Shown: in pieces, positions 2,003-25,056 of the stretch | How the letters are laid out: each line of letters begins with the position of its first letter | How positions within the stretch are numbered: position 1 is the stretch's first letter | Origin: a virus | Lineage: Duplodnaviria > Caudoviricetes | IMG/VR virus record: IMGVR_UViG_3300021431_000107 | Location: 18,741 to 82,740 of that record | Direction: 5' to 3' (one strand) | DNA: 64,000 nucleotides | Program-made: the position numbers and the translations under genes | Notes under the pieces: model-generated | Told to the model about the DNA's origin: nothing | Database searches by the model: none | What the model saw: only the letters and a program-made list of their open reading frames with translations

Positions 2003-2112
2003 TTTCTTCTCCTTTCCTTAAGATGAGAAAAAGAGAGCGACACTCACTTCGTTCGTAAGGCGCTCCAAAGAAAAGAGAGCCACTGTACAAATTACAGCAG
2101 CTCCATTCAGAC

Positions 2113-2232
2113 TTATTTGTTCCTTTCGTAAAGCATCAAATAAAGCATATAGCTTGCAATAGAAGGCATTGGGAGCCTTATCATGCTCTTATCAATTTTG
2201 ATTTGCTTCTCTTTCTTCTTTTCTTCAGCCAT
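2113..2232 (-). CDS. Small hypothetical protein
   Basis: AAGGAG RBS before ATG 2232; terminator directly downstream. Confidence 0.5.
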   Translation of the reverse strand: MAEEKKKEKQIKIDKSMIRLPMPSIASYMLYLMLYERNK

Positions 2233-2299
2233 ATTGTTCTCCTTTCTTGAAAACAAATCTATAGTCTCACTATAAGAGCTGGAATTTTTACGAGAATCA

Positions 2300-2605
2300 T
2301 CACTCATCCTGTTCACCATACGCACATTCATTACAATGAATTATTGGATGTTTCAACGCCTCTAATCCTAATCTATAGACCTCTGCTTTATCAACATAAT
2401 CGGAACAATCTTTAGTACATGGACAATTACCTAAACCTTTCAATGTACAGCAATCAATACTTGCTCCCATATCATGTTCACAATGATAATGAATGCAATC
2501 TGTTCTTATATTAGATTTATAATCACACTGACAATACATTATTCGACACCCCACAATATATAATTCATTTACTCTTTTTCCATCATTAGCATGGCATCTG
2601 CACAA
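2300..2605 (-). CDS. Cys-rich hypothetical protein (start uncertain, possibly 2539)
   Basis: Many Cys/His pairs. Confidence 0.6.
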   Translation of the reverse strand: MCRCHANDGKRVNELYIVGCRIMYCQCDYKSNIRTDCIHYHCEHDMGASIDCCTLKGLGNCPCTKDCSDYVDKAEVYRLGLEALKHPIIHCNECAYGEQDE

Positions 2606-2691
2606 TCACGGTAGTCGATTGGTTTGACTTCGGGCTGTGCTACCGATAATGTATCAATCGCACCCTGTCTACTGATTGAATCATCCGTCAC
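2569..2691 (-). CDS. 40-aa truncated paralog of the DDLISRQ family
   Basis: GGAGGTG RBS, GTG start, TDDSISRQGAID; promoter motif at 2741-2765. Confidence 0.55.
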   Translation of the reverse strand: MTDDSISRQGAIDTLSVAQPEVKPIDYRDCADAMLMMEKE

Positions 2692-2823
2692 TTCACCTCC
2701 GTATCAATTACCCGTCCACAATATTGGCGGATTTCTCAGTTTTATAGCAACTGTCGATGTTACGAAATCGAGAAAAAGAGAGCACCTGCAATAACTTCTA
2801 CAGATGCTCTCATTTCGAGTTAC

Positions 2824-3168
2824 TTATTCATGCTCATCCATATTTTCATGTTCTTTCCATTCTTCAAATTCGTTCCAGTTACTTATGGACTCGAAAGCAT
2901 AATCAGTATAAATTGTTCCTTTGTTAACAGGATGTGTAAGCATTGCCTTTTGTTCGTCCAGCTTGACTTTGGTTATACTGATCCCATCAATTAAGTTTCG
3001 TAGCTTATCGTTGTCATCAAGACACTTAAGTTTAAGATCTCTTACAACAGTTTTCGCCTTCTCTTCAGATGAGAACATACCAACCAAACATGGTAATACT
3101 CTCCACTCATATTCCTCGTCATCGTATATCCCATAACTAACAACCCATACATATCTCTCGTTTTCCAT
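2824..3168 (-). CDS. Hypothetical protein
   Basis: GGAGG RBS; own promoter (3211-3235) and terminator (2778-2811). Confidence 0.75.
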   Translation of the reverse strand: MENERYVWVVSYGIYDDEEYEWRVLPCLVGMFSSEEKAKTVVRDLKLKCLDDNDKLRNLIDGISITKVKLDEQKAMLTHPVNKGTIYTDYAFESISNWNEFEEWKEHENMDEHE

Positions 3169-3229
3169 AGTTTCTCCTCCTATAGTGAAAATATGATCCA
3201 TAAGTTTCTCATTATAGGAGCTGTTTATA

Positions 3230-3601
3230 TTACGAAACCACCCATACTTCTTTATTTATACTTTTATACTTCTTCATAATTTCCTTTACTCCAAGAACCT
3301 CTTTTGCCCTCTTATAGTCAAGACCACCTTCTACTGTGCTTGCCTTTTCAAGAACAATTGTATACCGGACAAGAGCACCCATTTCCTCACGAATCTCATC
3401 TACACTCTCATCTTTTGCGTGTTCATACGCTTCATGAACATTCTCAAAGGCGTTGCTAACCTTTCCAAGTTCAATCATGATAGCCCTCTTTGAAATCTTG
3501 GTTTTTGGTTCTTCCCCTTCTTTAAACTTATAGTATCTCTCAGGTCTATAGTTTTTAAAGTTGTTTACTCCATAAAGTACAAGTGAAAGTTTGCTTTTCA
3601 T
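3230..3601 (-). CDS. Hypothetical protein
   Basis: ORF coupled to neighbours. Confidence 0.7.
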   Translation of the reverse strand: MKSKLSLVLYGVNNFKNYRPERYYKFKEGEEPKTKISKRAIMIELGKVSNAFENVHEAYEHAKDESVDEIREEMGALVRYTIVLEKASTVEGGLDYKRAKEVLGVKEIMKKYKSINKEVWVVS

Positions 3602-3969
3602 AAATTAATACCTCCTAAATATTTAATTTCTTCATTTTGAGCACTGCTATCTTCTTCCTCTTCACCAGGCTCATCCTCGTCTCCAAGTTCCCTCATTTGA
3701 CTCAGCATTCTATTGAGTTCCGATATAATAGTTGAAGTCATACTGCCATCTGCCAGAGATTCAAGAACATCTATCACAATCTCTGAATCATAAGTTACAT
3801 CGTTTCTATCACGAAACTTAAAATTGATAAGTAAGTCTCCTCCAGCTACTGGTCTATAAGATATAAGGTAGTCTTCTTCTCCTTCAACAATATCGCTGTC
3901 TGCCAGCCATTTCTTTACAGCGTACTCAATAGTTTCCAAATATAATGCATGCGGTTCATCTGTAATCAT
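3598..3969 (-). CDS. Acidic hypothetical protein
   Basis: ORF coupled to neighbours. Confidence 0.7.
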   Translation of the reverse strand: MITDEPHALYLETIEYAVKKWLADSDIVEGEEDYLISYRPVAGGDLLINFKFRDRNDVTYDSEIVIDVLESLADGSMTSTIISELNRMLSQMRELGDEDEPGEEEEDSSAQNEEIKYLGGINL

Positions 3970-4294
3970 TTCTGCTCCAATTCTCTTTACATACTAAGAC
4001 ACAGGGAAAGTCTGAAGATACCATTTTGAGAAGATAATTAGTATCAGTTTCACTAAGCTCTATATCATACCAGTCATAGTCGGAATCATTCGCTGTTGGA
4101 GACGCCATTACTGTTATCTCATTCCTGTTATCCCCTAAATACTCAAGACTTATTGTCATTAAATCAGCTTCATCCTGATACTTTTCTGGAAGGTATTTCT
4201 TTGGCCCAGTGAAATATAATGTTGTGGAACCATGATACAAATTAAAGTAAGTATCCTCGTATTTGAATTCCTTTACATTAATCCCATCCGCCAT
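3956..4294 (-). CDS. Hypothetical protein
   Basis: ORF in operon. Confidence 0.7.
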   Translation of the reverse strand: MADGINVKEFKYEDTYFNLYHGSTTLYFTGPKKYLPEKYQDEADLMTISLEYLGDNRNEITVMASPTANDSDYDWYDIELSETDTNYLLKMVSSDFPCVLVCKENWSRNDYR

Positions 4295-4298
4295 AAGA

Positions 4299-4553
4299 TC
4301 ACTTCCTCCTATGTCTTAAATTGTGATTCCTCATTCTGCTGACTCTGTATCTGATATCGTCATCAATCATTTTGAGAGCAGATTTAGAATCTCTAACCAA
4401 ATCAAGTTGCTCCTTGTAAGAACGGTACTTTTCACATGACGAGTGACACGCCATATGTCTATCAGCACAATCCTTACAAGGAGCTATGATACTTACATGA
4501 ACCGCTTTAGCATTAACCTTTATTTCTTTCCCTCGGTTAATACCTTCATCCAT
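4299..4553 (-). CDS. Cys/His-containing phage protein
   Basis: PCKDCADRHMACHSSCEKY motif. Confidence 0.7.
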   Translation of the reverse strand: MDEGINRGKEIKVNAKAVHVSIIAPCKDCADRHMACHSSCEKYRSYKEQLDLVRDSKSALKMIDDDIRYRVSRMRNHNLRHRRK

Positions 4554-5173
4554 TACTTCTCCTTAAACTTATCAGCAATCGACGAGTAGATAGTGCCCAC
4601 ATTCTCAAGCTGATTGTTGTAGTTATCCAGAATCAAATCCATGTCGTCTTTAAGCTTCTCCATGATAAGGTCTTTGGCATCGTCCTTAACCTCCTCACGA
4701 AGCTCATGAATATCGATCTTCATGATCTGTTTCTTAAGTTCCTTCGAGACTTCTTTTGAAATCTCAGAGTACCTATTTTGAACAGCATCACGAACCTGAC
4801 GAGTTACATCATCGCGGATGGCTACGGTCGTATCATCTACAGCACGACGAACAGCAGCAGTTACTGCTTCATCTGCAGCATCACGAGCAGCACGATCAAT
4901 GATAGCCTGAGAGACCTGAACCGAAGACTTATTCTTGAGATCCCGAACAGCAATCCCAAGCTTATCAGATACTCTGCCAATTTTGATACTGGATCTAATG
5001 CCGAAGAGTAACGCCACTCCTACTCCTGCAATCATACCCCATCCAATGAGATCTGCCTTCGTGATAGTGATACCGTCTTTCTTGGTTTCCTTAGTTTCAA
5101 CGACCTGCTCTTCTCTTCTTTCCATAGTGTCTTCTCCTTTCATTTTGATACAGTTGCCACTTATACTAATCAC
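4553..5173 (-). CDS. Membrane-anchored coiled-coil protein
   Basis: One hydrophobic segment followed by helical heptads. Confidence 0.7.
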   Translation of the reverse strand: MISISGNCIKMKGEDTMERREEQVVETKETKKDGITITKADLIGWGMIAGVGVALLFGIRSSIKIGRVSDKLGIAVRDLKNKSSVQVSQAIIDRAARDAADEAVTAAVRRAVDDTTVAIRDDVTRQVRDAVQNRYSEISKEVSKELKKQIMKIDIHELREEVKDDAKDLIMEKLKDDMDLILDNYNNQLENVGTIYSSIADKFKEK

Positions 5174-5364
5174 TGCATTTCGGTCATCATATGCTCGATA
5201 TGCTGTACAGAATCAAGCATTTTCTTAGTATTGGCCATATTCTTAGCTGTTAACGGACCAATTGTAATAAGCGATCCCAACGCCATGCTAAGTAATCCTA
5301 CAAGAATCATCGAAAGATACTCATTTTCCTTATTCACATAGTTCGTGCTATCCATATTATCCAT
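5170..5364 (-). CDS. Small membrane protein
   Basis: Hydrophobic LSMILVGLLSMALGSLITIG. Confidence 0.6.
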   Translation of the reverse strand: MDNMDSTNYVNKENEYLSMILVGLLSMALGSLITIGPLTAKNMANTKKMLDSVQHIEHMMTEMQ

Positions 5365-5365
5365 A

Positions 5366-5626
5366 TTATTCCTCTTCTCCTTCTTTATGCCTTCCAGAGT
5401 AACTCTTCCTTAAATCCACAGGTCTAATGTTTACGTCTCTCACATACTGCCGATCCCCTATGTATACAGGATCTGGAATCTTTCCACGATACGACCATTG
5501 CCTCACTGTGATAGGCGTTACGTTAAACTTTTTAGCGAGAACTTCAGCTTTCACATACCCATTCTCAGCCATGAACCCATCGAAATCAGATACTATAGCA
5601 TTAAATTGCTCTTTTGAAACAATCAT
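5366..5626 (-). CDS. Helix-turn-helix DNA-binding protein (Xis/MerR-like)
   Basis: AEVLAKKFNVTPITVRQWSYRGKIP. Confidence 0.65.
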   Translation of the reverse strand: MIVSKEQFNAIVSDFDGFMAENGYVKAEVLAKKFNVTPITVRQWSYRGKIPDPVYIGDRQYVRDVNIRPVDLRKSYSGRHKEGEEE

Positions 5627-5883
5627 ATAGTCTCATCACCTCCTTTCACTACTTTATTCTCTTTCTCGAACTCACTTAATTCAGTGAAAGCCTCATCTGG
5701 CCTATTTGTTCTATAGCCCCTTTTGAGACAACTACGCCCACCATCCGCAGCACACTGACCGCAACGACACCAGACCATATCATGAGCTCTTTTCGACTCC
5801 ACGATATCTCCGCATCTCTTACACTGAATCTTATTCACCAGTATTCTGTTGTTTGTATAGTATTTCATGATTTTAAGCCACAC
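5623..5883 (-). CDS. Zn-ribbon phage protein
   Basis: CKRCGDIVES...WCRCGQCAADGG. Confidence 0.7.
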   Translation of the reverse strand: MWLKIMKYYTNNRILVNKIQCKRCGDIVESKRAHDMVWCRCGQCAADGGRSCLKRGYRTNRPDEAFTELSEFEKENKVVKGGDETI

Positions 5884-5925
5884 TCTAGTCTAGTGGAATA
5901 TCTTCGCTAACACTCAGATCGTCCA

Positions 5926-6615
5926 TCAATCTAACGGAACAGGCTTCGGTAAAGTCAGGATGTACCCTCCAGCAGATGAGTCATACACCACCTGCACTCC
6001 GACAAAATCGAACCAACCGAAGTTAAAGTCTTCCTTTGAAGGTGTTACACCCACCAGTTGATAATAGTCCGCAGTAGTCGCCGCGTTGTATTTCCTTGCG
6101 ATTGCGATGAGCTCTGTGAGGACCGCTTCTGCTTTTCCGAATGAAGGGATCGATACACGGCGAATACTAGTAACAGGATCCCGAGCAGTATTAGCATTTC
6201 TATTATTGCCATAATAACTATAACCACCGTCATTGCCATAGTAAGAAACATAGTTCACCTTCTGACCATTATAGGTTCCTTTCCTGTTACCTTTATCGGT
6301 TTTCCCAAAGAAGAAGATTTCGGCTGCTGCAGTAATATTCTCAACGAGGTACTCCTTCACTTTACGAATTGAGTCCCGAAGGAAGTCTTTTGCTCTTGGC
6401 TTGATGTAGTCGTCAACAATGGAGTCTTTGATATTATCCATGTCCTCTTCAAAGAAAATGGAAGCGGCTTTCTGTAACTTACTTTTTTCAACAACTTTTC
6501 CTTCTGTTATTGCCTGATGAACGTGGACCCGTGATGGATCCACATTATCAGGAATATTGCCAGTGCTGCTCTTATTTTGAGCGCCATCAAGCTTGGGCAT
6601 TTCTCTTTTTGCCAT
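5926..6615 (-). CDS. Conserved phage hypothetical protein
   Basis: 229 aa ORF; C-terminal ATTADYYQLVG...FGW motif. Confidence 0.75.
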   Translation of the reverse strand: MAKREMPKLDGAQNKSSTGNIPDNVDPSRVHVHQAITEGKVVEKSKLQKAASIFFEEDMDNIKDSIVDDYIKPRAKDFLRDSIRKVKEYLVENITAAAEIFFFGKTDKGNRKGTYNGQKVNYVSYYGNDGGYSYYGNNRNANTARDPVTSIRRVSIPSFGKAEAVLTELIAIARKYNAATTADYYQLVGVTPSKEDFNFGWFDFVGVQVVYDSSAGGYILTLPKPVPLD

Positions 6616-6778
6616 TTACTTTCCTACCTCCTCCAGTGAAATTAATAGGTCTATGAGAATTAACGTTCACTCCCTGAGCCAGACACTCATCACAAGGGTA
6701 CTCATTCTCTGCTTTCTTTTTGTGAACACATTTCTTGCAATAATTCTCGAAATAGACCTCTTTGTATTTATCGCCCAT
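6587..6778 (-). CDS. Small Cys protein
   Basis: YCKKC...PCDECL. Confidence 0.65.
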   Translation of the reverse strand: MGDKYKEVYFENYCKKCVHKKKAENEYPCDECLAQGVNVNSHRPINFTGGGRKVNGKKRNAQA

Positions 6779-7188
6779 TATTCGTCATCCACCTCCGTGA
6801 AAGTAACAGAATCATCAGTTTCTTCTCCATCAACCTTTTCCTCTTTATTTTGAGCAGAATCACTCATACTTCCAGCGATTCCTTTAACTGTGGAATACAC
6901 AATAGATCCAACCTCCTCACAGGTAGCAACGGCTTTATATGAAACAGAGAACCCGAGGAAACTAAAACCGATTTTGAGAGCCGCTGCACCAATCGACGTG
7001 AAAGCTGTTTTATCAGTGATTGATAACACCTCACGAGCTACATCGTACATTGCCTTTCCACCTGCGACACCTACTGCTACCTTGATAAGATCCTTTGTGC
7101 TTTTCTTCATAGTTCTTTTCTCCTTTTCATGAAATATAATTTGATTGTAGCCTAACATAGTGAGTTCCATATTCAGTTTTTTATTCAT
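6778..7188 (-). CDS. Hypothetical protein, probably membrane-associated
   Basis: Gly/Ala-rich hydrophobic segments. Confidence 0.65.
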   Translation of the reverse strand: MNKKLNMELTMLGYNQIIFHEKEKRTMKKSTKDLIKVAVGVAGGKAMYDVAREVLSITDKTAFTSIGAAALKIGFSFLGFSVSYKAVATCEEVGSIVYSTVKGIAGSMSDSAQNKEEKVDGEETDDSVTFTEVDDE

Positions 7189-8749: not shown

Positions 8750-9113
8750 CTGATTCCTCCTTTAGAAGCTCAAAGCAATTAATAGTACCAACATACTCGA
8801 TGAACTCAGTAATTGCATTAAGCTCTCCCACACTAACTGTCAGTTCATTGTTGCTACTATGATACGAAATGCAAACAGCATCATCCTGGTGATTAACGTA
8901 ACTATTATGTCCGTTCTCATCCACGAAAAGATTCACATAGAACAAATCACAATCAGTTCCTCTTGAAAGAATATAATACTGAGTTTTCGTATCTTCCTCG
9001 TATCCGTACTCTTTAAGCTCCCATCCGTATTCCTGAATGGCCTTGTATATTTCACGGCTGCATGCTCTTACCTCGTCTGTTAAGAATGGATATATTACTT
9101 CAAATTTATTCAT
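8727..9113 (-). CDS. Hypothetical protein
   Basis: ORF in operon. Confidence 0.7.
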   Translation of the reverse strand: MNKFEVIYPFLTDEVRACSREIYKAIQEYGWELKEYGYEEDTKTQYYILSRGTDCDLFYVNLFVDENGHNSYVNHQDDAVCISYHSSNNELTVSVGELNAITEFIEYVGTINCFELLKEESDDQNRED

Positions 9114-9469
9114 TTTGAACTCTCCTCCTTCACAATCTCAAGCACAGTCTTACTGAAACTCTCATCAACCGTGTCAAGTGCCTGACCACAGTCAGAACAC
9201 ATGTACGTATGACTCCAGGCATACGGCCTACTACCTTGTTCATCTGTCACTCGCTCAAACAGTACCGAACCGCACACAGGACATGTGAGATAGTAGTTTC
9301 CATCAAACTCTTTATTTTTATTCACAAGGATCGGTCTCTTAGGTGTGATACGCTTAACCGCTTCAATCGCAATCTCAAGAGCATCATAAGCCTTCTCTGA
9401 AATCTCAGGTTCCCAAGGCTCCGGTTCCTGGAGATGCATTAGCATAAGAATAGCCTCTTCATTTGTCAT
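9110..9469 (-). CDS. Zn-ribbon phage protein
   Basis: MTNEEAI...CPVCG...CSDCGQAL; start after AAGGAGCTCAAA. Confidence 0.75.
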   Translation of the reverse strand: MTNEEAILMLMHLQEPEPWEPEISEKAYDALEIAIEAVKRITPKRPILVNKNKEFDGNYYLTCPVCGSVLFERVTDEQGSRPYAWSHTYMCSDCGQALDTVDESFSKTVLEIVKEESSK

Positions 9470-9565
9470 TTTGAGCTCCTTTCCTTTCACTTTCTCTCGT
9501 AAGGTACTCCAAAACAAAAGGAGCACCTGTATCATTTACAGATGCCCCTGTCCCCGGTTAATAAG

Positions 9566-12229: not shown

Positions 12230-13087
12230 TCACGGTTTGACTGTTGGTCTGCCACTCCAGTCTAGAACTGTAACAGATATCTGATTTATCTTCGCTGTAT
12301 TATACAAATGCGGTACAAGTGCAGAGGTCATTGATAACCCTCCAAATATAAATGCTTCTGCACATCCTACTTGTGGTAGACACATCTCCGCCAAGAACTC
12401 ATTGTAAGTGAAGAACGGTTCCTGTCCAGATGCCAGTCTGGTATTCATATAATTACATACTTCCATTATTGTCTTTTCATCAGATCGGAAAACCATCCCG
12501 GTCATATGGTCATAAAATACCTGTGATCCTCCACGAGCTTGAATTATTCCATCTGGCCAATACTCGCCAACTTCGAAAAATGGATAGTCTCTTTCTACCT
12601 TATTTTGAGCAGCCTTCTCTTGAATCTCCTGCATCTTCTCCTCTCCGACTTCCTCTTTAGTCGCCTTGAAGAGATCCTGATACATTGCATCTGATACTAT
12701 TGCTGCTTCATGCCATTTTGAGATAGCCTTACCAGCGTACACGGCCATTCCAATGTTGAACCCTGCGGTTGCTGTTGCACAGATTACTACAGGAGCCGAT
12801 ACAACTACGAGTTCCTTAAGTGTGTGCCTTGTTGTCTTCTTTCTCTCCTCTGCCTTTTCCTCATCAGTGAGAAATGGATCATCATTTATCTCCTCGATTT
12901 CATGTCTCTTCTCCTCAAGAATCCTGTCAACTTTCGGTCTAGCCCTCCATGTGAGAACTACAGTAGCCGCAAGTCCAATAGTGGACCCGATTACTGTTGT
13001 AGCAGTAGAGTGCTCCATCGCTTTCGCAAATATAACGTCTGCACCCTTTTTGATTGTTGATGGTTTGAAGATGTCTAAGAATCCCAT
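12230..13087 (-). CDS. DUF6353-like phage protein
   Basis: N-terminal hydrophobic GSTIGLAATVVLTWRA; FYDHMTGMVFRS, N.RL...F..YNEF motifs. Confidence 0.65.
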   Translation of the reverse strand: MGFLDIFKPSTIKKGADVIFAKAMEHSTATTVIGSTIGLAATVVLTWRARPKVDRILEEKRHEIEEINDDPFLTDEEKAEERKKTTRHTLKELVVVSAPVVICATATAGFNIGMAVYAGKAISKWHEAAIVSDAMYQDLFKATKEEVGEEKMQEIQEKAAQNKVERDYPFFEVGEYWPDGIIQARGGSQVFYDHMTGMVFRSDEKTIMEVCNYMNTRLASGQEPFFTYNEFLAEMCLPQVGCAEAFIFGGLSMTSALVPHLYNTAKINQISVTVLDWSGRPTVKP

Positions 13088-13122: not shown

Positions 13123-13259
13123 CTAAAAAAAAGAAGAAGGATTATTTACTTCGTCAAACCTTTCGCATCTTTTCCGGCATTGAGAACTTTCCAAAACGTT
13201 TTCACGTGTCTCAACCCTGATGCAAGTTCAGGTTATTAGAAGTAATATAATCCCTCTTC
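13123..13259 (-). ncRNA. Candidate structured small RNA or leader (~125 nt) ending in a U-tract
   Basis: Promoter 13260-13284 directly upstream; nested helices; no ORF. Confidence 0.6.
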
Positions 13260-13329
13260 ACTATACCCTCTGTAGTTTTTACGAGTTGCTGTACACTGAC
13301 ACGTTCTCTTTGTTCACGTATAGTTCATG

Positions 13330-14124
13330 CTATTCGCTATAAATCATGTCTTCTGGATTTTGAGTTGTCGGATCTACCTGATAGAATAGACACAGCGCTT
13401 CCATTCCAGTATCATCTGTATAGATATCCATGCACTTTTCAATCCAAGGACCTCCATAATACGACCAACAGTAGTCCTGAGATTCATTCTCCCAGTTCCA
13501 TCCGATCTTATCACCAAGAGGTTTTGGTACTCCACCGATCATTTTGATGATGAAGTTGAGTCGAACGTCAAAGTCTTTAGCAAGCTTCTCATTTGCAGCA
13601 AGAAGAGCCCAGGCAATTCTTTCAGTTGACGTAACAATATACTGATCAGTATAAGGTTCGTAAACGAGAATCTTACCTGTCCCCTCACGAACTTCTCTGT
13701 ACTGAGACGCTGTTGGCTTCTCTTTGCTTCTTTTAATCTGCTCCTTTACGGTTTCTTCACGAATCTCATTCGCTTTCTCTTCTCCTACTACATCTTCCAT
13801 CTTTTTATCGAGACCTACGAACTTATCTTTCCACATAGCAGCTACACCGGCAAGAGCTACTTCTTTCCCAACGTGTATCCTATCAGACCCAATGATAGCT
13901 CCAATAGTTAAAGTAGCAGATAGTCCAGCTTTCCAGTAGCATTTTACATACTGCTTAATTTTCTCTTTAGTATCAAGATCCGGATCAATAGTCACATACG
14001 CCTGAACACCTGCCTTTGATGAGAGATAAGCAGTTGTTCCAACTCCAACACATGCGGCTGCTGCACAGATACTTCCTGATTTGTCCTTTAACAGGTTGAG
14101 TAAATTATCTATTTTGAACTTCAT
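13330..14124 (-). CDS. DUF6353-like phage protein, paralog of 12230..13087
   Basis: CVGVGTTAYLSSKAG; YEPYTDQY...N.KL...F motifs. Confidence 0.65.
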   Translation of the reverse strand: MKFKIDNLLNLLKDKSGSICAAAACVGVGTTAYLSSKAGVQAYVTIDPDLDTKEKIKQYVKCYWKAGLSATLTIGAIIGSDRIHVGKEVALAGVAAMWKDKFVGLDKKMEDVVGEEKANEIREETVKEQIKRSKEKPTASQYREVREGTGKILVYEPYTDQYIVTSTERIAWALLAANEKLAKDFDVRLNFIIKMIGGVPKPLGDKIGWNWENESQDYCWSYYGGPWIEKCMDIYTDDTGMEALCLFYQVDPTTQNPEDMIYSE

Positions 14125-17267: not shown

Positions 17268-17283
17268 TTTTACCTCCTTTCAA

Positions 17284-18054
17284 TCATCTAGAACACATCA
17301 TTTTAAAGCATTCCTCGTAGATATCTGCCTTCTGTTTCGTGAGTGCCATCTCCATGTCTGCTTCCGTGTAGATAGCATTAGGATTTGTAGCGGTCTCAAC
17401 TACTTTCTCAGGAACCTTAACTTCAACAATCTTCTCAACCGGCTCAATACCGAGGAAAGAAGAAAGCTCATTCCTGATATCAGTGAGCATGGAAAGAGGA
17501 ATATTCCAGCTTCTCTCAATGAAGTACTTGAGCGGCTTGTAGTAAAGTTTATGACAGGAGCTAATATTTCCATCTACATCGTTAGTGAAATATGGAGTAC
17601 AAATAGCAAACGAGTCAGTCCACTCAACGGAAAGGATGATATACTTTTCAGTGGTTCCATTACTTGACTTCACATCCCATACCTGTCCAGGAGCAAACTC
17701 TACTGTCTTCTTAAACTCAACTTTCTTAGGTTCAACATTGTTAATTGCCTTTGATGCTGTCAGATCCATATATCCCTCGTCGTTTCTATAATCTGGATAT
17801 CTCGTTGATGCTACAACGATCTTCTCCTCTTTCTTAGGTGCTGGTATGTAATAGATCGCTCCACGTTCTTTAGCAATGCTTTCAGGATACTGCTGTTCGA
17901 GATTGTCTATGTCTCTATACAGCGTGTTATAAGAGATACTGAAAAGATTGAGTAAATCCTTTACTTTAAACTTTTTACCAGGATCTTCCTTAAGAATCTC
18001 ATACAGCATCTGGCATCTTTCGTTAGCTTTTTCAACCTGAATAGTGTTCCCCAT
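17284..18054 (-). CDS. Winged-HTH-containing protein
   Basis: N-terminal FKVKDLLNLFSISYNTLYRDIDNL HTH; DEGYMDLTA motif. Confidence 0.65.
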   Translation of the reverse strand: MGNTIQVEKANERCQMLYEILKEDPGKKFKVKDLLNLFSISYNTLYRDIDNLEQQYPESIAKERGAIYYIPAPKKEEKIVVASTRYPDYRNDEGYMDLTASKAINNVEPKKVEFKKTVEFAPGQVWDVKSSNGTTEKYIILSVEWTDSFAICTPYFTNDVDGNISSCHKLYYKPLKYFIERSWNIPLSMLTDIRNELSSFLGIEPVEKIVEVKVPEKVVETATNPNAIYTEADMEMALTKQKADIYEECFKMMCSR

Positions 18055-18321: not shown

Positions 18322-18526
18322 ATCTTCGTCCTCCTTGATATAAGTTGATTTAATCTATCATTATAGGAACTGAATTTTTTACGATTAGTTCACTACGTTC
18401 ACACGGTCAAACTCGCAGACTCGTTTAACACGAAAAAGAAAGAGGCAACACTCATTACATTCGTAAACGCCTATAAGAAAAGAAAGAGGCATTGAAGCCT
18501 CTCTCCGAAATGCTCTTTTATCGATT

Positions 18527-18592: not shown

Positions 18593-18792
18593 TCCGCAGA
18601 TTCCTCCTTTGCCTCTTCTCTTTTAAGCGTTACGTACCGCTTCTTGAACGGGTTTTTAATGAGTTTACGAGTTTCCTCAATCTCCTTCTCCAAATGTTTG
18701 GAGTCTGCAGTCGAGTATCCTGTAATATAACCCAGGACCCACTGTGCAAATCCAAATACGAGAATTCCGATGATACCTGCTACATTTCTCAT
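18589..18792 (-). CDS. Single-TM protein (cassette)
   Basis: RBS AAAGGAG before ATG 18792; promoter 18830-18854. Confidence 0.75.
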   Translation of the reverse strand: MRNVAGIIGILVFGFAQWVLGYITGYSTADSKHLEKEIEETRKLIKNPFKKRYVTLKREEAKEESAE

Positions 18793-18996
18793 CTTTCGTC
18801 TCCTTTCATAAAAACGTGTTAACGTATCCATTATAGGAGTTGATTTTTTTACGAAGATGTTCACTCCGCTCACACGGTCAAACTCGCAGACTCGTTTAAC
18901 ACGAAAAAAGAAAAAGCGACGCTCACTATCGTTCATAAGGTCTTTGAAAAAGAAAAGCCCTGGAAGTGCATAATAGCTACTCCCAGAGCCTTTATA

Positions 18997-19209: not shown

Positions 19210-19341
19210 ATTGATTTCCTCCTTTAAAATAATCTATATTAAAAAAGAAGCTCACAATCTTCTCATAATATGCATTGTAAAGTTTACGATACGATAGGCA
19301 AAAATAGGAGCAGCTGTACAATTTGCTGCTCCGTCCTCCTT

Positions 19342-19545: not shown

Positions 19546-19684
19546 AATGTGCTTATATCTCTATAATAGGAGGTGTAAATATTACGAATTGCTATATCTC
19601 GAAAGAAAAAAAACAGATTGTAGAGAATCCGTTCAACTTCCTTTTCCTTCAAAAGCTTAATCTTTTTCAAGATCCTTCATCAAT

Positions 19685-19864
19685 CTACAATAACCATAGG
19701 TGATTAGCCCTTAGGTCACTGTAATCAACAGTCTGCCTGGTAATATCCATTTTATCGATCGTCACATCGTCATATGCGGATATCTTACATTTTCGGTGCA
19801 TCCAACCGCGACCTCGTTCTAGCTCACAGATTTGACTAATAATCTGCCGGTCCTTAACATTCAT
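19685..19864 (-). CDS. 59-aa hypothetical protein (cassette)
   Basis: Manual ORF downstream of promoter 19889-19913; weak RBS. Confidence 0.45.
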   Translation of the reverse strand: MNVKDRQIISQICELERGRGWMHRKCKISAYDDVTIDKMDITRQTVDYSDLRANHLWLL

Positions 19865-20000
19865 ATGATGAATATTACCTTTATCTTCATTATAAGTGAT
19901 GTAATTTTTACGATTGCTCAGTACCCTCGCACGGTCAAACTCGTTCCTCGTTTAACACGAAAATAAGAAGCCACTGTATATTTCACAGTGGCCTCATCTA

Positions 20001-20177
20001 TCACTCCTTTCTTTTCTTGAAACAGTATCCGATAATGGCTCCAATAACCAGTACCGGAAACAGAATGGCAAAGATAGTTAAAGCAATCGGCCAAATGGCA
20101 GCCAAGATGCCTACAACAAGCGGCAGTGCAATCAGCGCCATAAGAGCGAGTGCCATAACAATGATCATCTTAATCAT
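20001..20177 (-). CDS. 58-aa very hydrophobic two-TM peptide ending KKRKE
   Basis: GGAGG RBS; promoter 20226-20250; terminator 19968-19994. Confidence 0.75.
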   Translation of the reverse strand: MIKMIIVMALALMALIALPLVVGILAAIWPIALTIFAILFPVLVIGAIIGYCFKKRKE

Positions 20178-20292
20178 AATTGTCTCCTCCTTTATTTTGA
20201 GTAGTTATCGTTTACATTTCTTTCCATTATAGGAACTGTTTTTATTTCGAAAGAGAGAAGCCACTGTTTCATTTACAGTAGCTTCATGTCTT

Positions 20293-20394
20293 TTAAAACA
20301 TCATACTTGCAACCCCATTGATAGTTGCGTTTGCAATACAAATCTGGGCGAAGGTTCCTCCAAAGAACCATCCACCGATATATCCAAACAACAT
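20293..20394 (-). CDS. 33-aa Gly-rich hydrophobic peptide
   Basis: MLFGYIGGWFFGGTFAQICIANATINGVASMMF; AAGGAGG RBS; promoter 20428-20452. Confidence 0.65.
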   Translation of the reverse strand: MLFGYIGGWFFGGTFAQICIANATINGVASMMF

Positions 20395-20492
20395 CTCAAT
20401 TCCTCCTTTTTATTGGGTTTTATTTCTATAATAGGAGGTGTAAATTTTACGAAAAAAGAGGACCAAGATTTCTCTTGATCCCCCAAATTGTG

Positions 20493-20582
20493 CTATGATC
20501 TGTTCCCCTGTATTATGTCGATTGCAGAAGCAACGAGCAATGCCACAGCGAGAACAATCTCAACAATCTCGGTCTTTCTCAT
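20493..20582 (-). CDS. 29-aa single-TM peptide
   Basis: MRKTEIVEIVLAVALLVASAIDIIQGNRS; GGAGG RBS; terminator follows. Confidence 0.6.
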   Translation of the reverse strand: MRKTEIVEIVLAVALLVASAIDIIQGNRS

Positions 20583-20760
20583 CTTCGTCCTCCTTTTCCT
20601 TTTGAGTAATGCCACGTTTATTAAGTCTCCTTTCTACCGCCCGATCAATGGCGATGTCCTGCTGTTTCTTCGATACCTGGCCTCCAAGCCAACCAAGTAT
20701 CAAGCCAAGAATAGTAAGACCCATTCCGCCATTAATAAGCTCTTTAAATTTTTCTTTCAT
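20560..20760 (-). CDS. Single-TM protein (cassette)
   Basis: Promoter 20797-20821. Confidence 0.75.
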   Translation of the reverse strand: MKEKFKELINGGMGLTILGLILGWLGGQVSKKQQDIAIDRAVERRLNKRGITQKEKEDEDEKDRDC

Positions 20761-20858
20761 AATTTTCCTCCTTTTTAAAAACGTGATTACTATTTCACTA
20801 TACGGCTTGAAAAAAATACGAGAGCCACTGTATTATCCACAGCAGCTCCCATTTTGAG

Positions 20859-21215
20859 TTAGAGTAACTTTTCCGCGATATAATCTGCCATGTCCAAAGT
20901 GTTCATTTCTTTATAGAAGTTTTCACGAAAGTCAATCACCGTTTCAGGTATATGCGTGTTATTCATGACTGTCATAGCTTCCGGAAAGTTGTCTTCTATG
21001 GTCTTAAGTGTTGAATTTGATCCGATCGCTCCAACGTCATCAATCACATCATGGATGTTACGCATCACTTTAAATTTGTGACTAGTAACACCGACCGTGT
21101 AACCGATTCCTGCTGTTACTGCTCCGATTAAAATTGCTCCACCATAAACAGTCAACTCTACCGTATGATCGTCAACCCACTTCCTGATTTTGCCTTTTTC
21201 TTTCTTATTTTCCAT
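20859..21215 (-). CDS. Single-TM protein (cassette)
   Basis: Promoter 21258-21282; terminator 20822-20848. Confidence 0.75.
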   Translation of the reverse strand: MENKKEKGKIRKWVDDHTVELTVYGGAILIGAVTAGIGYTVGVTSHKFKVMRNIHDVIDDVGAIGSNSTLKTIEDNFPEAMTVMNNTHIPETVIDFRENFYKEMNTLDMADYIAEKLL

Positions 21216-21368
21216 AAATATCTCCTTTCATTTTAAGATATCGCTTACAAGTTCCTCACTATAAGGACTGTATTTAATGCGAGCTCGTTTCACTCGCCAT
21301 CTCTTACTAAGTTCGAGAAGAAAAGAACAGAAGCCACTGTATTATATACAGCAGCCTCTGTTGTCAAA

Positions 21369-21923
21369 TTATTTGATACTAAGTTTAGGATTCTGACCGA
21401 GTCCCATCTTGCTCACAAACCATCCATTCCGATCCGCATAGATTGCAAGACACGTACCTGCGAATCCAAGACCCGCTACTGCAAGTCTCGACCCGTTCTC
21501 AGTTACGATCTTTACGAGTTCACCTTTCTGACGCTTCTTGGCTGCGGTCGCTTCGTTTTCAACTTTCTCCTTTTCGAGTTTCAGATTCTCCTCTTCAAGG
21601 TCCAGCCTCTTCTGATCCATCTGAAGCTTAGAATCACTCATTTCCCTTTCGGAATCCAGTTTCTTCTGCTCCATCTCGATCTTAGAAGAGCTAATCTCCT
21701 TTTCAGAGTCCATCCGTCTCTCTTCAAGCTCAAGTTTCTCACGATCGACCTCAATCTTTTCGCGTTCGATATCGGCTTTCTCGCTATCCGTTACCATCTT
21801 CATGAGAGTGTCAAGATCTTTGATAGCGTTGTATCTATCGTCGGATCCCAGCTCCATGTGCTTGATCTTTGCAAGATCGTTATTAATGATTTCGTTTACA
21901 AGGATTTTTGTTTCTACAGTCAT
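21369..21923 (-). CDS. Charged coiled-coil repeat protein with C-terminal hydrophobic segment
   Basis: Repeated EKLE/KRLD heptads; promoter 21962-21986. Confidence 0.8.
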   Translation of the reverse strand: MTVETKILVNEIINNDLAKIKHMELGSDDRYNAIKDLDTLMKMVTDSEKADIEREKIEVDREKLELEERRMDSEKEISSSKIEMEQKKLDSEREMSDSKLQMDQKRLDLEEENLKLEKEKVENEATAAKKRQKGELVKIVTENGSRLAVAGLGFAGTCLAIYADRNGWFVSKMGLGQNPKLSIK

Positions 21924-22025
21924 ACAAATTCCTCCTTATTACAAATCAAACAATTTGCTTCACTATACGACTTGTTTTTTATGCGAATTTGGAATACAAT
22001 AAACTTGCAAAACACCAAAGAGGGT

Positions 22026-22241
22026 CTACTTTTCGAGTTTAATCTTGAGATAGATCCTCTTCCTTTTTGGAAGCTTAGACAGGTCCTCCGATACTTCAAT
22101 TCTATACGTATCCTTTTCAATATCGGTCTTGTCGATAACAAGCGTTCCAGCATTTGGTGATTTAATGATATGCCAAACCGATACAAAGATCGATCCAAAG
22201 ATATTCCCTAAAATAAAAGCTCCAACATAAAACCAAATCAT
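22026..22241 (-). CDS. Single-TM phage protein
   Basis: GGAGGTCTCAAAATG; GTLVIDKTD...YRIE. Confidence 0.75.
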   Translation of the reverse strand: MIWFYVGAFILGNIFGSIFVSVWHIIKSPNAGTLVIDKTDIEKDTYRIEVSEDLSKLPKRKRIYLKIKLEK

Positions 22242-22277
22242 TTTGAGACCTCCTTTCATAAAAAAAAGAGACCGCAT

Positions 22278-22562
22278 TTAAGCGATCCCTCTTACTCTTT
22301 TCCACTCGTAACGTCCATACATAGATTCATGTACTCCATCGACATAAATCTCGTAACCGCAGCCATACGGACTCATTGACTTCAGTAAGAACAGATGATC
22401 AAGCTCCTTCTTTGGAACAAGACCTCTAAACATAACGATATCTTCTTTATCGACTCTATAAAGATGCCTCGTCCAGTTTTCAAGATCGTCGATTAACTGT
22501 TCCATCATACAGTCCTTTTTGTCCAGGACTACAGCTACGTAGTTAAATCTCAAATCGTACAT
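22278..22562 (-). CDS. Hypothetical protein (cassette)
   Basis: Promoter 22597-22621. Confidence 0.7.
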   Translation of the reverse strand: MYDLRFNYVAVVLDKKDCMMEQLIDDLENWTRHLYRVDKEDIVMFRGLVPKKELDHLFLLKSMSPYGCGYEIYVDGVHESMYGRYEWKRVRGIA

Positions 22563-22905
22563 AAAAATCTCCTTTGAAATAAAGTTATAAGTTTCTATTA
22601 TACGAAGTGGTTTTATTACGAAAAAAAAGAAGCACCTGTATTTCTACAGATGCTTCTGAGTACCTAGTTTTCTCTTTCAAGTCTGTTTTTCAGAATGGAG
22701 AGAGATCTAATGCTTTCATTGAATTTCTTAGCCTTCTGTTCACAGTTCTCATCCATTGCCCGATGCATAAGTTTCGTATAGTTCTGGATAAGACTGTTCA
22801 CGAACTCTAATGTCTCAAAAGTTTCTACATTTTTACTCATGTCATTCCTCCTATAATATAACTTGATTTACTAGTTCCTATTATAGGAGTTGTAATTTTT
22901 TCGCA

Positions 22906-23145
22906 TTACCATCTCACATCATCTTCGTCTCTGTCATAGTAAGGTCTACCGGTTCTAAGTTCAAACTCGTAGTCCTCACCGGCTTGTATATCCCCTGCAG
23001 TTATCTCCATGGCACATTTACCGCACATATTACCTTCTGGCCACTCCTCATCGTAATCTGTGTCATAGTCACTAAACTCATCATTGTACATTTCCCTTGC
23101 TTCGTCAACATCAAATCGTTTCCCACAATGAATACACTTTGCCAT
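22906..23145 (-). CDS. Highly acidic Zn-ribbon protein
   Basis: CIHCG...CGKC with Asp/Glu-rich spacer. Confidence 0.75.
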   Translation of the reverse strand: MAKCIHCGKRFDVDEAREMYNDEFSDYDTDYDEEWPEGNMCGKCAMEITAGDIQAGEDYEFELRTGRPYYDRDEDDVRW

Positions 23146-23261
23146 TTTGAGACCTCCTTTTATAGATGTATAACTGGTTCTATAAAGAAGATATCATAGA
23201 AAAAGAAAAGGGACAAGACTTGACTTTCTCATCCCTTTTCAGTATAATGCGCGCTGCTTTT

Positions 23262-23513
23262 TTAGTAGTTAAACTTATTTAATCCCTTAAAGAACTTCCA
23301 ATCCTTACTGAATCCCTTTGGCTTCTCAAGACTCCCAGACAAGATAGAGAACGCATAAAACGTCATTTCTACCATTTTCCTGTGATTAATTCTATCTATA
23401 AGTCTAGAATGCTTCACAACAAACTGGTATACAGCTTCATCCGTTACTCTTACGTCAGGAAAATCTGCGTAATTTGTCAACTCGTACCTAAGAGCTTTAA
23501 TGATTTTACCCAT
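23262..23513 (-). CDS. Hypothetical protein (cassette)
   Basis: Promoter 23551-23575. Confidence 0.7.
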   Translation of the reverse strand: MGKIIKALRYELTNYADFPDVRVTDEAVYQFVVKHSRLIDRINHRKMVEMTFYAFSILSGSLEKPKGFSKDWKFFKGLNKFNY

Positions 23514-23622
23514 AAGTTTCCTCCTTTTTAAAAACATAACATTTTGCATCATTATACGAATTGAATTTATTACGATACAGCTCAGTCCATTCTCGTACCA
23601 AACGAAAAAGAAATAGCCCCTG

Positions 23623-23856
23623 TTAAGAGGCCATCTCTCCTATAATTTCATGATACATCTCATCGAGTTCTTTAAATTCAGATTCAGACACATAGCATCT
23701 AAACTGCATGCCAACGAGATCGTCTTTTCTCTTGATGAAACGAATGCTATAAGCCACACGAAGTACCTCGCATACCTTAGAGAATCGTTCGATTTCATCA
23801 TGAGTTGCAAGAACGAAATCCCACACGATGCACCGTCTTTTACTCTGCTTAATCAT
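23623..23856 (-). CDS. Hypothetical protein (cassette)
   Basis: Promoter 23892-23916. Confidence 0.7.
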   Translation of the reverse strand: MIKQSKRRCIVWDFVLATHDEIERFSKVCEVLRVAYSIRFIKRKDDLVGMQFRCYVSESEFKELDEMYHEIIGEMAS

Positions 23857-23947
23857 GTCTCTTCTCCCTTCAAGTTAGAACAATTTGTATCATTATATCC
23901 GGTGTAAATAGTTCGAAGGTATTTTGAGAAAAAAAAGAAGACGCAGA

Positions 23948-24124
23948 TTACTCTGCATCCTCATGAGCCGAACGGATAATCCGGCGAATTGAATCGTCGC
24001 TATATCCGCAAGACTCACAAAGACCTGCGTAGTAATCCACGTCCTCTTCGAACCCCTCATGGCCGAGGGTACGACCATAGAGATTCTCAGCAGCGACCCT
24101 AAGCCGCAATCTGAGGTTACTCAT
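23948..24124 (-). CDS. Small hypothetical protein (cassette)
   Basis: GGAGGTG RBS; promoter 24167-24191. Confidence 0.7.
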   Translation of the reverse strand: MSNLRLRLRVAAENLYGRTLGHEGFEEDVDYYAGLCESCGYSDDSIRRIIRSAHEDAE

Positions 24125-24246
24125 ACTTGTCACCTCCTTTCCCTCGGTATATATTAGTAGGTTCCTATACTATGCATTGTAAATTTTACGATACGATAGT
24201 AAAAACAAGAAGCCACTGTAATAGCTACAGCAGCCTCTGTTTTGAG

Positions 24247-24471
24247 TTATTTAATCAATACTTTCACGTAAGGAATTCCATCGTCATCGCCAATTTCGAT
24301 CCACCATTTATCGACCTCAGCAGTATCATATCCGGAGAAGGTTCTTGCAATCTTATCTGCTGGAAATGTTCCAATCCAGCACGTATGATTAGCCAGGATT
24401 ATGTCTTTCTCCACGATCGATATTACTAAGTCCTTATCTTTCAATGTTACCACAAGATCCTTAAGTTTCAT
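24247..24471 (-). CDS. Hypothetical protein (cassette)
   Basis: Promoter 24511-24535; terminator 24208-24241. Confidence 0.75.
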   Translation of the reverse strand: MKLKDLVVTLKDKDLVISIVEKDIILANHTCWIGTFPADKIARTFSGYDTAEVDKWWIEIGDDDGIPYVKVLIK

Positions 24472-24615
24472 AACGTTTCCTCCTTCATTTAAGTATGTTA
24501 ATAACTTATCATTATATGTATTGTTTTTATTACGAAAAAAAAGAAGCGTCGCTCATGTTATTCGCTACGTCCTCAAAAGAAAAAGAGGCCCTGTAAAAGC
24601 AGCCTCTTGATGCAG

Positions 24616-24909
24616 TCAAATAGCATACTTGTCAAGCAGTCTCTTTAAGTCCTCCTTTTCCCTCTGAAGCTCACCAATCTGCTTCTCAAGGCTATTGATT
24701 TCCATGCTCTTCTTAACATTCTCACGGCGATAATATGAGACATCATTGTCACGATCCTGCAGTCTGATACGAAGTCCTTCAAGAAACCTATTGATCTCAA
24801 CAATCTCATTGAAATCATCAGCTTCTCCGTCTCCGTAAGTCAGCAGCATAACGTGCTTCTTGATCTCCTCAAACATATCAACCTGAGCAGTGTTATTCAG
24901 TTCTTCCAT
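24616..24909 (-). CDS. Coiled-coil protein (cassette)
   Basis: Promoter 24945-24969; terminator 24583-24608. Confidence 0.75.
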   Translation of the reverse strand: MEELNNTAQVDMFEEIKKHVMLLTYGDGEADDFNEIVEINRFLEGLRIRLQDRDNDVSYYRRENVKKSMEINSLEKQIGELQREKEDLKRLLDKYAI

Positions 24910-25056
24910 TTTGAATCTCCTTTCTTAAATCAATTGATTGCTTCATTAAAGCAGTTGTTTTTATTTCGAACACGCTCAGTCCCCTCGCACCGCCAAACTC
25001 TCTTTGTTCGTTTAGCTGAAAAGAAAGAGGCAGATGTTACTCTGCCCCTATGGAAC

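Follow-up and report, generated by a model that had tools for sequence, protein, structure and literature searches.

Strand-specific mini-hairpins with tandem G.A pairs form a conserved module at terminator-promoter junctions of rumen and gut temperate phages

Introduction

What are the tiny hairpins that recur on one strand, between the genes of an uncultured tailed phage, and do they act as DNA or as RNA? The DNA in question, called the window below, is a stretch of 64,000 nucleotides, bases 18741-82740 of the 82,740-bp IMG/VR virus record IMGVR_UViG_3300021431_000107 (Duplodnaviria; Caudoviricetes), the genome of a temperate gut or rumen siphophage. A sequence-only reading of the window had listed about 15 minus-strand hairpins with tandem G.A pairs, six of them written out and nine given as further copies, had placed most of them between a terminator and the next promoter, and had interpreted them as a selected structural signal that none of the listed genes accounts for. 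Here, we report that these hairpins are clearly under selection as a structural, strand-specific module, and we weigh the functions that such a module may have. Positions are those of the window unless a relative is named.

Results

A family of mini-hairpins that fold only on the sense strand

All six written-out hairpins were recovered on the minus strand (2042-2056, 18388-18402, 18450-18464, 19916-19930, 19937-19953 and 21283-21297). Every real copy carries a tandem G.A/A.G step in a Y-GA-R context and at least two outer base pairs. Y-GA-R is the context in which tandem G.A pairs are sheared. We defined a strict motif as 2 bp, Y-GA-R, 1-2 bp and a 3-4-nt loop, followed by the mirror image of these elements. 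The hairpins are a conserved family of 15-25-nt mini-hairpins, foldable only on the sense strand; the complementary strand is unable to fold because of the G.T wobbles and G.A steps. GNA accounts for 12 of 16 triloops, with about half closed by C-G (2042, 18388 and 18859 in the window, 5996 in the relative L165, and hairpin 1 of the relatives G001 and G002) and the rest by T-A or G-C. Among the nine further copies, those at 18409, 18880, 18859, 24551 and 24974 fit the strict motif, while the others deviate: 18921 has a GATA tetraloop and one A.C outermost pair, and 24995 and 13302 share the core GAAC-AAA-GAGA, in which an A.A is added beside the tandem G.A. The copy at 5902 (5902..5917, minus strand, CTGAGT-GTTA-GCGAAG) is an isolated pattern match with no terminator or promoter nearby; it falls within chance expectation and is probably a chance match. 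Copies that had escaped the earlier list are a hairpin at 21302-21316 and degenerate versions at 9486-9500 and 23580-23596.

We counted the strict motif, with its Y-GA-R constraint, across the whole 82.7-kb genome and in 500 dinucleotide shuffles. Non-coding sense DNA contains 12 copies against 2.35 ± 1.59 expected; the maximum in the shuffles was 8, and none of the 500 reached 12. There are 2 copies on the antisense strand of non-coding DNA and 13 in coding sense DNA (14.1 ± 4.2 expected, no excess). The strand specificity noticed earlier is true (12 sense vs 2 antisense). Nearly all genes lie on the strand of the hairpins as well, hence the polarity of transcription and that of replication are inseparable here. 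When the Y/R constraint was dropped, the loose pattern was weakly enriched in non-coding DNA (15 vs 8.0 ± 2.7), and its raw count differed by strand (166 vs 31), mostly as a consequence of the purine-rich coding strand. Loose matches are common on that strand, and 5902 is probably one of them, but chance as the source of the whole family is hardly credible, since it is contradicted by the shuffles and, as described below, by covariation and by the match to a cross-phage model. Several copies are recent duplicates (18409 is identical to 18880, 18388 resembles 18859, and 19916 resembles 24974), and the independent events are therefore fewer than the copies. In four relatives (L157, L160, L165 and L166), the strict motif occurs 10 times in non-coding sense DNA, against 1.0 ± 1.0 expected, and 0 times in antisense.

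Three hairpin types combine into a junction module

Three types of hairpin can be distinguished, and the sense strand carries them all. Type A (2042, 18450, 18921 and 24551), positioned right behind a normal terminator, consists of a basal GC stem, an internal loop, a G.A hairpin as its apex, and a T-tract. Type B (18409, 18880, 19937 and 24995, with a similar core at 13302) follows the pattern GTTAAAC-GA-N-loop-N-GA-GTTTGAC, and type C (18388, 18859, 19916, 24974 and 21283) is found 0-4 nt upstream of a promoter box. The usual order is terminator, (A), B, C, promoter. In the module, types A and B serve as hairpin 1 and type C as hairpin 2, with the terminator T-tract before them and a promoter or ribosome-binding site (RBS) after them; the module starts ~0-4 nt past the T-tract of an intrinsic terminator and ends just ahead of the next promoter or RBS. 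Promoter and terminator maps thus agree with the earlier note that most copies follow a terminator and precede a promoter. In a clade of rumen/gut temperate siphophages, the cassettes at terminator-promoter junctions include the module as one of their interchangeable parts.

All copies in the window lie on the minus strand. Type A units with a T-tract are found at 2028..2066 (base GGAGCG/CGCTC(T), apex ACGAAC-GAA-GTGAGT at 2042-2056), 18434..18472 (base AGGCG/TGCCT, apex ACGAAT-GTA-ATGAGT at 18450-18464), 18904..18945 (apex (A)TGAAC-GATA-GTGAG(C) at 18922-18935) and 24535..24574 (CGT-A-GCGAAT-AAC-ATGAGC-G-ACG, apex at 24551-24565), the T-tract of the last running into the promoter box TCGTAATA. 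The unit at 2028..2066 follows a terminator at ~2070-2105 and stands directly before the RBS of gene 1769-2002, with no promoter; similarly, a degenerate type A at 9486..9500 (ACGAG-AGAAA-GTGAA) lies between a terminator and the RBS of gene 9110-9469. Type B is represented at 18406..18429 (GTTAAAC-GA-G-TCTG-C-GA-GTTTGAC, the first hairpin after the T-tract), by an identical copy at 18877..18900, at 19934..19956 (GTTAAAC-GA-G-GAA-C-GA-GTTTGAC), and by a variant at 24992..25016 (GCTAAAC-GA-AC-AAA-GA-GA-GTTTGGC); a B-like hairpin at 13301..13319 (ACGT-GA-AC-AAA-GA-GA-ACGT) is located just upstream of the promoter 13260-13284. Three type C hairpins precede the box TCGTAAAA: 18388..18402 (GTGAAC-GTA-GTGAAC) by 3 nt (box at 18377-18384), 18859..18873 (GTGAGC-GGA-GTGAAC) by 4 nt (18847-18854), and 19916..19930 (GCGAGG-GTA-CTGAGC) by 2 nt (19906-19913). 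Another, at 24974..24988 (GCGAGG-GGA-CTGAGC), is 4 nt upstream of TCGAAATA, and a degenerate C-like hairpin at 23580..23596 (ACGAG-AATGGAC-TGAGC), whose 3' GA has been lost in L157, is upstream of TCGTAATA. Lastly, a complete two-hairpin module at 21279..21322 abuts the box TCGCATTA; its hairpin 1 (TCGAAC-TTA-GTAAGA, 21302-21316) has the second GA mutated to AA, and its hairpin 2 is GCGAGT-GAA-ACGAGC (21283-21297).

Stems covary across distant phages while the G.A step is kept

Relatives L157, L160, L165 and L166 were reached via a 256-aa protein encoded next to the hairpins. L157 is syntenic and is the closest relative (76% identity in this protein); L160, L165 and L166 are more distant (35-37%). 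A scan of contigs with the promoter class described below added G001 (65.8 kb), G002 (88 kb), L097 and L101/L189, and a degenerate-pattern scan of metagenomes found L155, a 1.8-kb contig with a B+C module (one further match in that scan was due to chance). Exact-pattern scans of IMG/VR for the B+C composite returned no match, and a scan of genomes for the hairpin pattern returned a single match, a chance one, in a Verrucomicrobiales metagenome-assembled genome. In the relatives, the architecture reads T-tract, ~0-4 nt, hairpin 1, 4-9 nt, hairpin 2, and then a promoter or directly an RBS. Hairpin 1 has the consensus TYGAAS-NNN-STGAGA, often with extra basal pairs, and hairpin 2 is exemplified by GCGAGT-GTA-ACGAGT and TTGAGT-GAA-ACGAAA. 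L165 additionally has a tandem pair of type A units, both with a T-tract of their own. The two-hairpin module thus recurs in rumen/gut phages at only 35-50% protein identity.

The claim that stem bases covary while the G.A/G.A step is kept was borne out both in this genome and in distant relatives. When 15 15-mers were pooled, 98.3% of cells were paired, all four stem pairs covaried, with 23 double-change cells, and none of 500 shuffles did as well; sliding the pairing partner by 1-3 columns removed the covariation signal. This test is partly circular because most rows came from a scan that required pairing. Tests with less circularity point the same way. Six B hairpins aligned on their conserved arms show compensatory changes at three pairs: in L165, for example, an A-T in the long stem has become G-C (GTTAAGC/GCTTGAC), and the B hairpin of L155 has an inner A-T pair where the window has G-C (its C hairpin has an AAAA loop). 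We also assembled nine modules of hairpins 1 and 2 from other phages only, two of them admitted by position alone. In this set, 98.6% of cells are paired and five of eight pairs show compensatory changes (0/500 shuffles). A covariance model built from these nine foreign modules matches the window at 21279-21322 with 44.6 bits (E = 1e-9), and it was this model that revealed the hairpin at 21302-21316 missed in the earlier note; known loci account for 10 of its 17 best matches, each of them on the minus strand. For hairpin 1, RNAalifold put forward a fold in a shifted register (CUCG/UGAG, 7-nt loop); we rejected this fold because the covarying pair 14-18 would then fall in the loop and because two of the nine sequences cannot form its outer pair. 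In an orientation test of gene direction against a fixed strand, the sole reverse-strand match, in L097, falls within a gene.

These data bear on whether the module might be a duplex DNA site, close upstream of the promoter, to which an activator or a repressor binds. The nearly fixed distance of type C, 0-4 nt upstream of the TCGTAAWA box, would suit such a site, as would copies that read as direct repeats (GTGAAC-N3-GTGAAC). We nevertheless consider a duplex site very unlikely: the spacing of the GA steps varies from 7 to 10 nt, the changes fit pairing and not repeats (GCGAGG/CTGAGC, GCGAGT/ACGAGC), the signal does not survive the shift of the partner, and modules are also present where a promoter is absent. 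No Rfam family matched window 1-27000 at E up to 1, with two sub-threshold chance matches elsewhere. Neither an Rfam family nor an annotated gene accounts for the hairpins. The earlier proposal of a selected structural signal is supported by stems that covary while the G.A/G.A step, its Y-GA-R context and mostly GNA loops are kept.

A private promoter class of the clade and a terminator family

The clade with hairpin modules also shares a private promoter class and a gene for a putative YonO-like RNA polymerase. The promoter consensus is TCGTAAWA-N11-TATAAT (TCGTAAWA-WWWWCA-N5-TATAAT), with no -35 hexamer at 17 bp. There are ~20 copies in the genome, all on the minus strand (18354-18384, 18824-18854, 19883-19913, 20220-20250, 22591-22621 and ~15 more). 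A scan of IMG/VR found the class in dozens of rumen/gut phage contigs, where the promoter normally abuts a terminator T-tract. A G.A hairpin lies directly upstream of none of 140 promoters in these other contigs, and we rejected the idea that the hairpins are an integral part of the promoter class. We also rejected a sigma-A promoter that would use the TTGAC of the type B 3' arm, as no -10 box is found at 17 bp. The private promoters are probably read by a putative YonO-like polymerase, a 1028-aa protein encoded outside the window on the minus strand (genome bases 310-3396, L085:310-3396). We base this assignment on its motif GADFDGD, an aspartate triad like that of multisubunit RNA polymerases, and its several helix-turn-helix (HTH)/sigma-4-like units; each of the five related phage records compared has this protein, with 39-53% identity.

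The intrinsic terminators likewise belong to one sequence family, GAGGCYRCTGTA...TACAGYGGCTTC followed by a T-tract, with members at 2070-2105, 19965-19995, 20205-20240, 20820-20855, 21325-21362, 22625-22658 and 24200-24240. Window 18-26 kb is a run of small genes (58-184 aa), most with a promoter of their own and each with a terminator of this family. The shared terminator sequence gives long near-repeats at every junction, which are likely substrates for cassette exchange. Some long promoter-to-terminator stretches are free of open reading frames (ORFs) and are candidate non-coding RNAs (window 19600-19913 and 13124-13284; L157 7803-8635; L165 5228-6090); several of these stretches have a hairpin module as their immediate neighbour, on the upstream or the downstream side.

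Modules come and go between close relatives

A comparison of the window with L157 shows flanking terminators and promoters that are almost identical and hairpin modules that differ, as clean 45-72-nt indels. L157 is without a 72-nt stretch (half of A plus B and C) at the homologue of 18921-18859, without the 45-nt type A of 18450 (it retains C as well as a B hairpin whose inner stem is AT/AT and whose loop is TTT), and without the whole B+C module upstream of the 19913 promoter. Conversely, L157 has an intact type A at 18612 (ACGAGC-AGAA-GTGAGT, GGAG/CTCC base, T-tract) whose window homologue at 9486 is degenerate. G004, G005 and G007 share the promoter class, polymerase, primase-helicase and structural genes, and have either none or one doubtful non-coding hairpin. 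From the indels and these hairpin-free phages we conclude that single copies are dispensable. Moreover, the same promoter module fronts different genes in the window, L155 and L157, and the genes downstream of modules are mutually unrelated; the module is therefore not a gene-specific leader. A check proposed earlier, that breakpoints of cassette gain and loss fall at the hairpins, gave a divided answer. The modules themselves are indels, but the one gene cassette that we traced, with a 118-aa gene (20859-21215) absent from L157, appears to break in the similar flanking terminators and not at G.A hairpins (by eye, without a formal alignment). We found no homologues of the 118-aa protein, which lies beside the 21283 module.

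This turnover raises the possibility that the hairpins are self-propagating junction modules with no function for the phage. They would spread when the conserved tails of terminators and heads of promoters recombine or undergo gene conversion, in the manner of PeSL shuffling (see Discussion), or by way of an enzyme acting on single-stranded DNA (ssDNA), and would survive because the terminator-promoter space is a safe site. Their presence or absence within otherwise near-identical junctions, and the same module before different genes, are what this predicts. So are the repeats that frame them, since the final 10-20 nt of the preceding terminator (3' arm and T-tract) recur in every type A unit and the B+C module is bracketed by TCGT...TCGT, and the degenerate copies (23580, 9486, and hairpin 1 of L189, with a G changed to A). 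However, drift alone leaves unexplained the compensatory changes and the Y-GA-R context and GNA loops kept at 35-50% protein identity. Furthermore, no Y1/HUH transposase or similar enzyme was present among 46 Pfam-scanned proteins, the ends of the insertions are not clean, and there is no fixed target sequence. On balance, we regard propagation without function as unlikely.

The phage and its other genes

The phage encodes a large terminase, a portal, a fused protease-capsid protein and an endolysin, together with replication genes for a D5-type primase-helicase, a helicase and an ssDNA-binding protein; a 2130-aa ORF is located in the tail module. Megablast and tblastn found no close relative among GenBank phages, the capsid relatives having at most 58% identity. 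An integrase of ordinary phage type (27885-29102, plus strand; its L157 homologue has a Phage_integrase domain) adjoins, on the opposite strand, a Cro-like HTH_3 gene (27454-27654, minus strand). In L157, the gap separating the integrase from the Cro-like gene contains sigma-A-type promoters (TTGACG-17-TATAAT). Given the integrase, the Cro-like gene and these promoters, we conclude that the phage is temperate and has two promoter types. The fused head-maturation protease and major capsid protein is annotated at 45237-47213; such fusions are best known from actinobacteriophages, and here one occurs in a phage with Firmicute-type RBSs. Three DUF6353 paralogues are present (window 12230-13087, window 13330-14124 and L085:15965-17098), and relatives too have 2-4 copies.

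Discussion

The G.A hairpin module is a variant within a broad kind, the repeated regulatory hairpin cassettes of phage plastic regions, and the closest known system is that of the PeSL cassettes of T4-type phages. PeSLs are repeated units of promoter and stem-loop between small genes, with G-T pairs in the stem and modular shuffling (PMC2839356; PMC4122927). As with PeSLs, we see composite regulatory units repeated between small non-essential genes of a plastic region, with ~20 promoters of one class, a terminator family, and hairpins between genes of 58-184 aa in window 18-26 kb; the stem-loop can lie upstream of the promoter, its placement being variable in PeSLs as well, and differences between close relatives map to the units (the 45- and 72-nt indels against L157). 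Unlike PeSLs, however, our cassettes have a promoter that does not resemble sigma-70/sigma-A promoters, and they already include a conventional terminator of their own. Their hairpins are tiny, come in pairs, and combine GNA loops with a tandem G.A step that never varies; the phage, moreover, is a temperate siphovirus of a Gram-positive-type host.

Tandem intrinsic terminators offer a second comparison. Type A resembles them in having a GC-based stem and a T-tract right behind a first terminator; it differs in its apex, a conserved G.A/GNA mini-hairpin, and type B, type C and hairpin 2 lack a T-tract, so that the resemblance to terminators or attenuators, as read from sequence, appears confined to type A. 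Several other known elements were considered and rejected. A kink-turn or K-loop of the L7Ae type does not fit, as Watson-Crick pairs flank the symmetric G.A step on either side, leaving no three-nucleotide bulge next to it; a hammerhead-like core would need CUGANGA, which is absent; and the spacing is wrong for TRAP-like GAG repeats. REP/BIME-RAYT elements, hairpins derived from IS200/IS605, and attC sites share with our hairpins the short, imperfect, intergenic form and a reading of one strand as ssDNA (here a proposal). An origin from REP/RAYT or IS200/IS605 was rejected, given no conserved GTAG and no Y1/HUH transposase in the (non-exhaustive) Pfam scan. The type B arms GTTAAAC/GTTTGAC match the attC RYYYAAC/GTTRRRY at six of seven positions (18406-18429 and 19934-19956; L165 5963-5987). 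This is probably a coincidence, as a 6/7 match has roughly a 1% chance, and an integron attC was rejected because B has only an R-box-like stem, with no L box and no extrahelical bases, and the integrase is of the ordinary phage type.

How, then, might the module act? The evidence fits more than one of the functions suggested by the sequence-only reading, a site for ssDNA recombination, priming or protection, or protein binding in read-through RNA. Our tentative preference, which we hold at clearly less than an even chance, is that the hairpins act as ssDNA landmarks. If replication runs with transcription, the sense strand would be the lagging-strand template or the displaced strand; it could also be extruded under transcription-driven negative supercoiling just upstream of strong promoters. 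GNA/sheared-G.A mini-hairpins would persist on it as compact landmarks resistant to melting by ssDNA-binding protein. To a phage or host protein, they would signal priming, loading or initiation, in a way comparable to the G4 complementary-strand origin, RSF1010 ssiA or the N4 early promoters. Copy number per region would outweigh exact position, and copies could come and go between close relatives because the number in the region, not the place, would matter.

Published work on mini-hairpins and several features of the hairpins themselves tip us, slightly, towards ssDNA over hairpins in read-through RNA. In synthetic GCNNNGC oligonucleotides, only GNA loops form mini-hairpins, with melting temperatures of 70-76 °C in DNA vs 39 °C for the RNA r(GCGAAAGC) (PMC13037366). 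The known natural GNA mini-hairpins, found in the priming origins of G4, St-1 and alpha3, in ssiA, and in the N4 early promoters, are all ssDNA initiation signals (PMC13037366). By analogy, the predominance of GNA and the frequent C-G closure in our hairpins would point to DNA over RNA. In addition, stand-alone C hairpins are essentially unfolded as RNA (predicted 0 to -0.5 kcal/mol), and types B and C lie past the terminator and ahead of the promoter, thus outside primary transcripts. The dispensability of single copies suits a collective signal, and we count the D5-type primase-helicase and the ssDNA-binding protein in favour of ssDNA landmarks. The likeness to d(GCGNAGC) mini-hairpins covers the GNA triloop, the often C-G closing pair, the very short stem and the strand specificity, and their natural sites too are in phages and mobile elements (G4/St-1/alpha3, RSF1010 ssiA with its RepB' primase, N4). 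Unlike ours, the G4, ssiA and N4 sites lack an internal tandem G.A, and a genome has just one or a few of them, located at its origins or early promoters. The N4 hairpins are moreover on the template strand, ~12 nt upstream of the start, whereas those described here form on the non-template strand and precede either an RBS or, by 35-80 nt, a -10 box of conventional appearance. A hairpin promoter of the N4 type was consequently rejected: the strand is wrong, and there is no N4-type polymerase, the sole candidate being the 1028-aa GADFDGD protein.

Several observations count against ssDNA landmarks. Type A, of which there are at least eight copies in four phages, resembles a true intrinsic terminator, a design for RNA, and the first hairpin is tightly coupled to the preceding T-tract. 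Some hairpin junctions have no promoter between the hairpins and the next gene (2042 and 9486 in the window; 43155, 48137 and 62404 in G001; 72693 in G002), and the hairpins there must therefore be transcribed if that gene is expressed. General sites for lagging-strand priming would be genome-wide, whereas the copies cluster in the early small-gene region, and the strand fits a lagging-strand template only if replication runs with transcription. Nearest-neighbour DNA parameters give 0 kcal/mol for the 15-mers, although such parameters are known not to capture mini-hairpins (PMC13037366), and the stability that we would ascribe to the DNA form comes from published data on oligonucleotides of other sequences. 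Finally, the one partner protein that we can propose is a weak candidate (see below). An improbable variant, suggested by the promoter-less junctions, is that the two-hairpin module is an alternative ssDNA start signal read by the YonO-like RNA polymerase or the primase: the module there takes the promoter's position, after the T-tract and 25-35 nt before the start codon, and its two hairpins are ~21 nt apart from centre to centre, like -35 and -10 elements.

A rival reading, which we judge possible though on the unlikely side, is that the hairpins are RNA elements in read-through transcripts, made by polymerase that escapes the first terminator. Type A would then be a back-up second terminator with a fast-folding apex, and the stand-alone hairpins would recruit a protein to halt, process or insulate the read-through RNA, or else would protect the new 5' end after cleavage in the U-tract. 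Type A combines a basal stem and a U-tract, although its predicted fold as RNA is weak, with -5.8 to -9.8 kcal/mol (z -0.9 to -2.0), and it duplicates the 3' arm and T-tract found in the terminator immediately before it. Hairpin 1 begins 0-4 nt past the T-tract in nearly all modules; six or more junctions have no promoter, so that the next gene would carry the hairpins in its leader; and the clustering in the early small-gene region fits as well. The stems of hairpin 1 (T-A, C-G, A-T) are invariant across distant phages, which suggests a partner that reads sequence, and PeSL stem-loops are documented attenuators (PMC2839356). Weighing against RNA, the GNA triloop is not the stable choice there (39 °C vs 76 °C), the C hairpins would hardly fold as free RNA, and neither type B nor type C has a U-tract. 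Furthermore, the modules are dispensable at individual junctions and precede unrelated genes, and three phages with the same polymerase and promoters do without them.

A possible partner of the hairpins is the 256-aa protein encoded just downstream of the hairpin-rich region (17284-18054, minus strand). It has an N-terminal winged helix (weak matches include Z-alpha domains), a domain with a MazF/Kid-like fold, a C-terminal helix, and the invariant motif EGYxDPT. The central domain of its AlphaFold model (mean pLDDT 71.5; 79-87 over residues 121-200) matched MazF/Kid toxins in Foldseek with E values down to 4.5e-5, although the family consensus does not clearly show the usual context of the MazF catalytic arginine. 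Four phages with hairpins, G000, G001, G002 and L189, have the protein, and three without hairpins, G004, G005 and G007, lack it, a co-occurrence in the few genomes compared that would also suit an RNA element; the link fails in more distant homologues, L190-L198 having no hairpins. We regard this winged-helix and MazF-like protein as a weak candidate for the hairpin partner.

The hairpins have a short, well defined motif that is easily tested with oligonucleotides. Should they work as DNA, many mini-hairpin signals of the ssDNA type would be in use in a double-stranded temperate phage, whereas such signals are known mainly from the origins of single-stranded phages, from one priming site on a plasmid, and from the three early promoters of N4. 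Should the hairpins work as RNA, they would constitute a new protein-binding motif tied to terminator read-through. In either case, the hairpins mark exchange junctions of small early genes in a large clade of uncultured gut/rumen phages.

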